This document shows positions 2,110 to 2,182 of a DNA stretch of 3,746 nucleotides, piece by piece. The stretch comes from Escherichia coli. GTDB taxonomy: Bacteria > Pseudomonadota > Gammaproteobacteria > Enterobacterales > Enterobacteriaceae. Made by a program: the position numbers and the translations under genes. Within the stretch, counting starts at the first letter, position 1; every line of letters starts with the position of its first letter. The stretch lies in the NCBI RefSeq assembly GCF_003334385.1, contig NZ_QOWN01000091.1; one strand, written 5' to 3'. The notes under the pieces are model-generated. The model had not been told where the DNA came from, searched no databases, and saw only the letters and a program-made list of their open reading frames with translations.

Positions 2110-2138
2110 TTGCGTGACCGCCTTGTCGTTAATAGAAT
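2110..2138 (+). promoter_or_regulatory. sigma70 promoter of agn43/flu: -35 TTGCGT (2110-2115), 17-bp spacer, -10 TAGAAT (2133-2138); predicted TSS about 2144-2146
   Basis: Hexamers and spacing read directly. The predicted TSS falls on the first of three GATC sites, matching the known architecture in which OxyR binds over and just downstream of the agn43 promoter. Confidence 0.6.
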
Positions 2139-2140
2139 AA

Positions 2141-2182
2141 AACGATCGATAAAACAGGTATCGATCGTTGCTATCGATCGTT
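2141..2182. promoter_or_regulatory. Ag43 phase-variation switch: three Dam-target GATC sites within an OxyR-type operator
   Basis: GATC at 2144-2147, 2163-2166 and 2176-2179, each inside a CGATCG palindrome. Direct repeat TATCGATCGTT at 2159-2169 and 2172-2182. The three-GATC OxyR/Dam switch of agn43 is established biology; its location directly downstream of the -10 and upstream of the Ag43 CDS fits. Confidence 0.75.

Follow-up and report, generated by a model that had tools for sequence, protein, structure and literature searches.

Genomic context

The window, by which we mean the whole 3,746-bp stretch of Escherichia coli DNA that was analysed, carries a GTPase-family gene followed on the same strand by the start of agn43 (flu), the two coding features being as follows.

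1153-2025, plus strand: open reading frame of a YeeP-like GTPase family gene, the conserved left neighbour, annotated 'GTPase family protein' by RefSeq in relatives
2397-3215, plus strand: agn43 coding sequence as read in the window, from the ATG at 2397 through a frameshift at a run of eight G (G8, 3156-3163) to a stop codon at 3213-3215

From base 78 onwards the window is 99.8-99.9% identical to many strains, and in close relatives (99.7-99.9%) the RefSeq gene 'autotransporter adhesin Ag43' begins at the position of window 2397. A 371-bp query around the site of interest has matches in 4018 of 5426 complete E. coli genomes; almost all of them are chromosomal and adjoin an annotated agn43. 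In 397 complete-genome records a 131-bp core is conserved at 99% identity or more, the best of these records differing at one base only, and none of the complete E. coli genomes matches 2100-2230 perfectly. The homologous region of K-12 MG1655 is flanked by the yeeP pseudogene on one side and flu (b2000) on the other, with the noncoding RNA gene isrC inside it. The segment is thus placed directly upstream of an Ag43-family autotransporter gene, although that gene is frameshifted here. Neither dam nor oxyR is found within the window.

The left end of the window is of a different kind. Bases 1-77 are the end of an IS4-family element of the IS421/IS186 type, and the likeness to the agn43 island of other strains starts at base 78. 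From there to the GTPase gene (78-1150) extends about 1.07 kb of AT-rich DNA that matches no Rfam family and in which relatives have no annotated gene.

Promoter, transcription start and leader

Upstream of agn43 we assign the following transcription features.

2110-2115, plus strand: -35 hexamer TTGCGT, matching TTGACA at three of six positions
2133-2138, plus strand: -10 hexamer TAGAAT, after a 17-bp spacer and 5 bp before the first GATC site (GATC-I)
2144-2378, plus strand: agn43 5' leader, equivalent to the IsrC/IS102 RNA, from an Rfam match and the K-12 isrC gene at the homologous place
2338-2371, plus strand: intrinsic-terminator-like structure at the leader's 3' end, a hairpin of 12 pairs (2338-2365) and then a T6 run

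The initial annotation had proposed TTGCGT and TAGAAT as the promoter elements, and both are present with a 17-bp spacer, giving a sigma-70 promoter with its -10 element directly before the first GATC. The 17-nt block around the -10 element, AATAGAATAAAACGATC, is identical in K-12; the -35 element of K-12 is TTGTCC, at the same distance from -10. The TTG of the -35 element and the preceding CTGTyTCTC are invariant across the sampled alleles (11 to 15 alleles). A generic consensus promoter scan of the window did not list the agn43 promoter, since its -35 element matches at just three of six positions, and it is on homology and conservation that we accept this as the putative promoter. The annotated 5' end of K-12 isrC (b4435; L002:2318) falls on the G of the first GATC, which places the probable start of transcription here at the G of GATC-I, position 2144.

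The Rfam family RF00124 (IS102/IsrC) matches 2142-2378 over the entire model (1-206 of 206), with 72.7 bits against a gathering score of 46 (E = 2.3e-11). IS102 is the earlier name of IsrC, and the RNA is the agn43 leader. Its terminator is nearly invariant between K-12 and the window allele, and the hairpin at 2338-2365 is seen in both the minimum-free-energy and the centroid folds. The leader as a whole folds modestly better than shuffled sequences (z = -2.4). At its 5' end, the RNA of 2144-2182 could form mutually exclusive hairpins between the first and second, second and third, or first and third GATC units, because all three units are palindromic. The 5' stem of the Rfam IS102 model consists of the units of GATC-II and GATC-III, and the minimum-free-energy fold pairs 2144-2151 with 2172-2179.

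GATC sites and repeats

Three GATC sites and three copies of one 11-mer lie 3' of the -10 element.

2144-2147, plus strand: GATC-I, read from the sequence, at offset 13 as in K-12
2163-2166, plus strand: GATC-II, 19 bp 3' of GATC-I, at offset 32 as in K-12
2176-2179, plus strand: GATC-III, 13 bp 3' of GATC-II and 32 bp 3' of GATC-I, at offset 45 as in K-12
2159-2169, plus strand: first direct copy of the 11-mer TATCGATCGTT, an exact match around GATC-II
2172-2182, plus strand: second direct copy of the same 11-mer, an exact match around GATC-III
2141-2151, minus strand: exact inverted copy of the same 11-mer, around GATC-I

The sites at 2144, 2163 and 2176 agree to the base with those given in the initial annotation, as does the CGATCG context of each; the hexamers at 2143, 2162 and 2175 are the sole CGATCG occurrences in the window. 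The identical units that it had placed 13 bp apart around the latter two sites are the copies of the 11-mer at 2159 and 2172. Its description of a '13-bp direct repeat' holds for the period, which is 13 bp, but the repeated unit itself is 11 bp long. The third, inverted copy at 2141-2151 had not been described. This copy and 2159-2169 are the two arms, 7 nt apart, of an 11-bp inverted repeat, which was listed as a hairpin in our scan and has a single-strand DNA fold of z = -5.2. That the repeat looks both direct and inverted follows from the palindromic nature of the 11-mer units themselves.

GATC is otherwise strongly depleted, with five occurrences in the whole 3746-bp window against about 14 expected. 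The two remaining sites are at 999 and 1024, both within the AT-rich segment 78-1150. In first-order Markov simulations, 105 of 2000 sequences contained three GATC within 36 bp, so that the clustering alone is not compelling; three CGATCG within 38 bp arose in none of 2000. The decisive evidence for a switch is homology and not these statistics.

Predicted OxyR half-sites

The whole window was scanned with the consensus of the OxyR dimer half-site, ATAGnTnnnAnCTAT, which has ten scored positions. The relevant features are as follows, none with an assigned strand.

2132-2146: predicted OxyR half-site A, ATAGAATAAAACGAT, matching ATAGnTnnnAnCTAT at 8/10, overlapping the -10 element and GATC-I and identical in K-12
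2164-2178: predicted OxyR half-site B, ATCGTTGCTATCGAT, matching at 8/10, 32 bp from A and of the form ATCG-N7-CGAT
2128-2185: region expected to be protected by OxyR, by transfer of the K-12 footprint

The top score of 8/10 is reached only three times in the 3746 bp, at 2132-2146, 2164-2178 and 2160-2174, the last being an alternative predicted half-site that overlaps B. We found no further half-site scoring at least 7/10 within 2116-2209. The half-sites at 2132 and 2164 score 8/10 in K-12 too, and their separation of 32 bp is the canonical spacing for reduced OxyR (PMC4856963 for opvAB; PMC2909390 for gtr). The two arms of predicted half-site B contain GATC-II and GATC-III, respectively. The 13-bp spacing of these two sites is explained if the GATCs occupy the two arms of one half-site, and the pair is probably better read in this way, as a single OxyR dimer half-site, than as a repeat.

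The contiguous 37-nt OxyR consensus is less informative. It matches at 10-13 of 20 positions in several registers and is ambiguous, whereas the half-site analysis is clearer. With the 37-nt Toledano consensus in the best register of K-12, K-12 scores 14/20 and the window allele 10/20, and the loss is entirely in the middle element, where CTAT of K-12 is replaced by AACA. The OxyR recognition sequence overlapping the GATCs is thus represented by the half-sites at 2132 and 2164, the 37-nt match being weak.

In K-12 the OxyR(C199S) footprint reportedly extends from -16 to +42 (Wallecha et al. 2002). Transferred to the window allele, this would presumably correspond to 2128-2185, an interval that encloses both predicted half-sites.

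Conservation across alleles

For comparison we took 14 E. coli loci from across the range of identities, among them K-12, O157:H7 cah, HUSEC2011 and two decayed loci; they represent 12 haplotypes, a small sample gathered by similarity to the window. GATC-I, GATC-II and GATC-III are invariant in all 12. Within 2128-2185 none of the 12 GATC bases varies, against 24 of the 46 other positions (Fisher p = 6e-4). Within the half-sites, one of the 20 positions specified by the consensus is variable, against six of ten N positions (p = 0.002), and the same holds when the GATC bases are left aside (1/11 against 6/10; p = 0.02). Half-site A varies only at 2138 and 2142, both of which are N positions of the consensus, and the most variable stretch is that between the half-sites (10 of 17 positions). 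The conservation mask follows the OxyR half-site consensus, which fits the switch model.

Two further traits, the three CGATCG contexts and the identical 11-mers, had been presented as features of the switch. They are present here, but are traits of an allele group and do not define the switch: CGATCG at all three sites is found in nine of the 12 haplotypes, and both identical direct 11-mers in five. At GATC-I, K-12, ECCNB12-2/ET210 and MFDS1001074 have CGATCA. The triple CGATCG is typical of the allele group but not obligatory.

The three GATCs are also present in two loci that have lost the gene or part of it, MFDS1001074 (L007) and MARGA_3 (L008), where agn43 is deleted or its N-terminus lost. 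In MFDS1001074 the flanks of the GATCs have drifted, to CGATCA, TGATCG and CGATCA.

At position 2184 the window has G where all its nearest relatives have A (ATAG to GTAG). We considered a private operator mutation and rejected it, since 68 genomes carry G and the position lies outside both half-sites. Those 68 genomes belong to another allele group with intact 948-residue Ag43/Cah genes, and 2184 sits 6 bp outside half-site B. Because G is a natural polymorphism in genomes with intact genes, and lies outside half-site B, it is unlikely to disable the switch. The distribution suggests either that a short tract was exchanged by recombination or that the mutation has recurred; the position is at the border of the footprint inferred for OxyR.

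The allele group with 2184G (L015:3537-3647, L016, L017, L008) has TAGAAC and not TAGAAT at -10, with loss of the conserved last T; Ag43/Cah genes are still intact in the TAGAAC group. Promoter strength may differ between TAGAAT and TAGAAC alleles.

A Dam/OxyR switch and its relatives

The segment 2110-2185 is very probably the promoter and operator of agn43, with the classical Dam/OxyR epigenetic phase-variation switch, in an allele common outside K-12. The initial annotation had identified an Ag43 Dam/OxyR switch from the sequence alone, and this identification is borne out by agn43 downstream in relatives, the K-12 geometry, the Rfam match, the half-site matches and the conservation pattern. 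The alignment to the K-12 agn43 regulatory region that it had called for gives an identical -10 box, and GATC offsets (13, 32 and 45) equal to those of the window. A 13-nt gap that MAFFT introduced in K-12 between GATC-I and GATC-II was discarded as spurious, an ungapped comparison anchored on -10 having identical geometry.

In K-12, OxyR binds the unmethylated region of the three GATCs and represses agn43 (OFF), and methylation of the three sites by Dam blocks OxyR binding (ON). Dam and OxyR compete after replication, and both states are inherited. Mutation of dam locks the switch OFF, mutation of oxyR locks it ON. Three GATCs with similar spacing are present in other agn43 allele groups too, for which phase variation is expected (PMC2808357). 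It is from this K-12 literature that we infer OxyR binding, methylation sensitivity and switching for the window allele.

Our model for the window allele is as follows. The sigma-70 promoter (2110-2115 and 2133-2138) would initiate transcription on the G of GATC-I (2144) or directly beside it. A tetramer of reduced OxyR would bind the two dimer half-sites 32 bp apart, A (2132-2146) and B (2164-2178), and, lying over the -10 element and the start site, would repress transcription (OFF) while also shielding the three GATCs from Dam. Dam and OxyR would compete after replication. Where Dam methylates the adenines at 2145/2146, 2164/2165 and 2177/2178 (on the two strands), OxyR binding would be lost and transcription would proceed through the 253-nt leader into agn43 (ON). 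Both states would be inherited, and transcription of this agn43 copy is expected to be bistable.

The likeness to K-12 agn43 is close. The switch occupies the same place between a yeeP-type GTPase gene and agn43; the GATC offsets and spacings, the two 8/10 half-sites, the leader terminator and the ribosome-binding region are all the same, and AATAGAATAAAACGATC is shared. The alleles differ at GATC-I, which is CGATCA in K-12 and CGATCG in the window, and in the 7-nt block from GATC-I to GATC-II, which is TCTATTT in K-12, where it supplies the CTAT, and AAACAGG in the window. Further differences lie in the sequence 3' of GATC-III, in the -35 element and in the central part of the leader. The window has three exact 11-mers, whereas two of the three have one mismatch in K-12. 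The common non-K-12 agn43/cah alleles (FDAARGOS_497, 2014C-4135, O157:H7 cah and HUSEC2011) are near-identical to the window, both in the core and overall; with respect to these the window has 2184G, the private G8 frameshift and the IS421-type end at 1-77.

The switches of Salmonella gtr (P22, LT2_I) and opvAB also have half-sites 32 bp apart, and there too methylation blocks OxyR and OxyR blocks Dam. In gtr one pair of GATCs is at -110/-97 and another at -46/-33, both with a spacing of 13 bp and each within one OxyR half-site (PMC2909390). The 13-bp GATC pair of agn43 appears to be the same module, two arms of one OxyR dimer site. The architecture is nevertheless different, since in gtr and opvAB three or four half-sites, located upstream of the promoter, make up two alternative OxyR sites, from one of which OxyR activates; in agn43 it is only a repressor, at a single site over the -10 element and the start. 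In the window we find one pair spaced by 32 bp and not three or four half-sites upstream of a promoter. The pap-type Lrp/Dam systems share the principle that Dam competes with a DNA-binding regulator and the resulting methylation pattern is inherited. In pap, however, the regulator is Lrp with PapI and the two GATC boxes are 102 bp apart. No boxes about 102 bp apart occur here: the spacings are 19 and 13 bp, and the nearest other GATC is at 1024.

This switch is already known and its identification is of low interest. The significance beyond annotation is little, a textbook agn43 epigenetic switch being confirmed at this locus. What is added is the inverted 11-mer, the half-site reading of the 13-bp pair, the recognition that three CGATCG contexts are not obligatory, and a caveat concerning the frame of the gene.

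The frameshifted agn43 gene

The product of agn43 as read in the window is truncated after 272 residues by a +1 frameshift. Intact agn43 genes read AATGGGGGGTACC (GGGGGGT) where the window reads AATGGGGGGGGACC (G8). With one G deleted, the frame is open to the end of the window, and the repaired ORF from the ATG at 2397, of which 449 codons are seen, is 99.8% identical to RefSeq agn43 WP_000820497.1, with the single change Y256D. The G8 run is found in none of the complete E. coli genomes. At the same spot GGGGGGGT is present in two RefSeq genomes (S1-CAM-01-A and W137), where the genes are annotated as frameshifted pseudogenes. Either a mutational hotspot or a sequencing error in a homopolymer could account for the G-run, and the G8 frameshift may mark a real pseudogene or an error of this kind.

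The expectation in the initial annotation that this copy is probably phase-variable can thus be retained at most for transcription, which may switch, but not for the protein, as the agn43 frame is broken by G8 at 3156-3163. Because of the frameshift the output would be a truncated protein and full-length Ag43 would be absent, except if the run reflects a sequencing error. With the gene frameshifted, selection on this copy may be relaxed. Any prediction of the Ag43 phenotype of the strain has to resolve the G8 frameshift first.

Alternative explanations

These observations raise the question of whether the operator is a relic, intact in front of an agn43 pseudogene, such that ON and OFF would yield just leader RNA and the 272-residue fragment. 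We take this to be a real possibility, though not the one that we favour. The G8 run shifts the frame and is common to no complete genome, the genomes with GGGGGGGT are annotated as frameshifted pseudogenes, and MFDS1001074 and MARGA_3 keep the three GATCs despite a deleted or truncated agn43; an intact switch is therefore no proof of intact function. Against this, the 449 codons differ, besides the run, by one residue from intact Ag43, so that any decay must be very recent, and homopolymer length is a classic sequencing error. A relic, moreover, would touch the output of the switch and not its identity.

Two other explanations would bear on the identity itself. The GATC units might act mainly in RNA, by forming a stem-loop at the 5' end of the agn43 leader/IsrC with an influence on stability or termination, and methylation would then be secondary. 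With the start placed at GATC-I all three units would be transcribed, and both the IS102 5' stem, made of the GATC-II and GATC-III units, and the minimum-free-energy pairing of 2144-2151 with 2172-2179 could be read in this sense. Palindromic units, however, always pair with one another, so that such a stem is an automatic by-product; the z-score of the whole-leader fold is modest against shuffles; units that never vary in 12 haplotypes offer no covariation; and the conservation mask tracks the OxyR half-site consensus instead. The published genetics, with dam locked OFF and oxyR locked ON, also point to the DNA level. We consider a principal role in RNA very improbable; a hairpin is possible as a side effect and is not needed to explain the data. 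It is hardly credible that the sites have no part in regulation and are just PvuI-like CGATCG palindromes clustered by chance, or a simple repeat of short units. Three GATC within 36 bp do turn up in about 5% of simulated windows, but the triple CGATCG was never reproduced, the position, spacing and -10 box are those of the experimentally characterized K-12 locus, and divergent alleles, although variable at the positions around the GATCs, all keep the GATCs themselves.

Possible allele-specific switching

Accepting a Dam/OxyR switch at this locus, we were interested in whether its alleles might behave differently. Compared with K-12, the window allele has lost the middle CTAT, and with it part of the match to the contiguous consensus, which represents oxidised-type binding; it has kept only the two half-sites 32 bp apart and has gained a perfect 11-bp inverted and direct repeat around the three GATCs. 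From this combination it could be that the non-K-12 allele binds OxyR only in the extended, reduced-type mode, with switching rates or a bias unlike those of K-12, a suggestion that we make tentatively and regard as rather unlikely. In support of allele-specific agn43 switching rates being plausible, we note that in opvAB single-base changes in the half-sites lock the switch (PMC4856963). Single-base polymorphisms such as 2184A/G and TAGAAT/TAGAAC might likewise tune the switching bias between lineages.

Beyond E. coli, a neutral anchor taken from the leader had no match when scanned over species-representative genomes, and a scan of such genomes for the switch pattern had a single hit, an E. 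coli-like contig in a MAG of Collinsella. This contig of Collinsella sp. (L014; JAIJJM010000733.1), 1560 bp in length, carries the E. coli agn43 switch and is very likely a binning contaminant.
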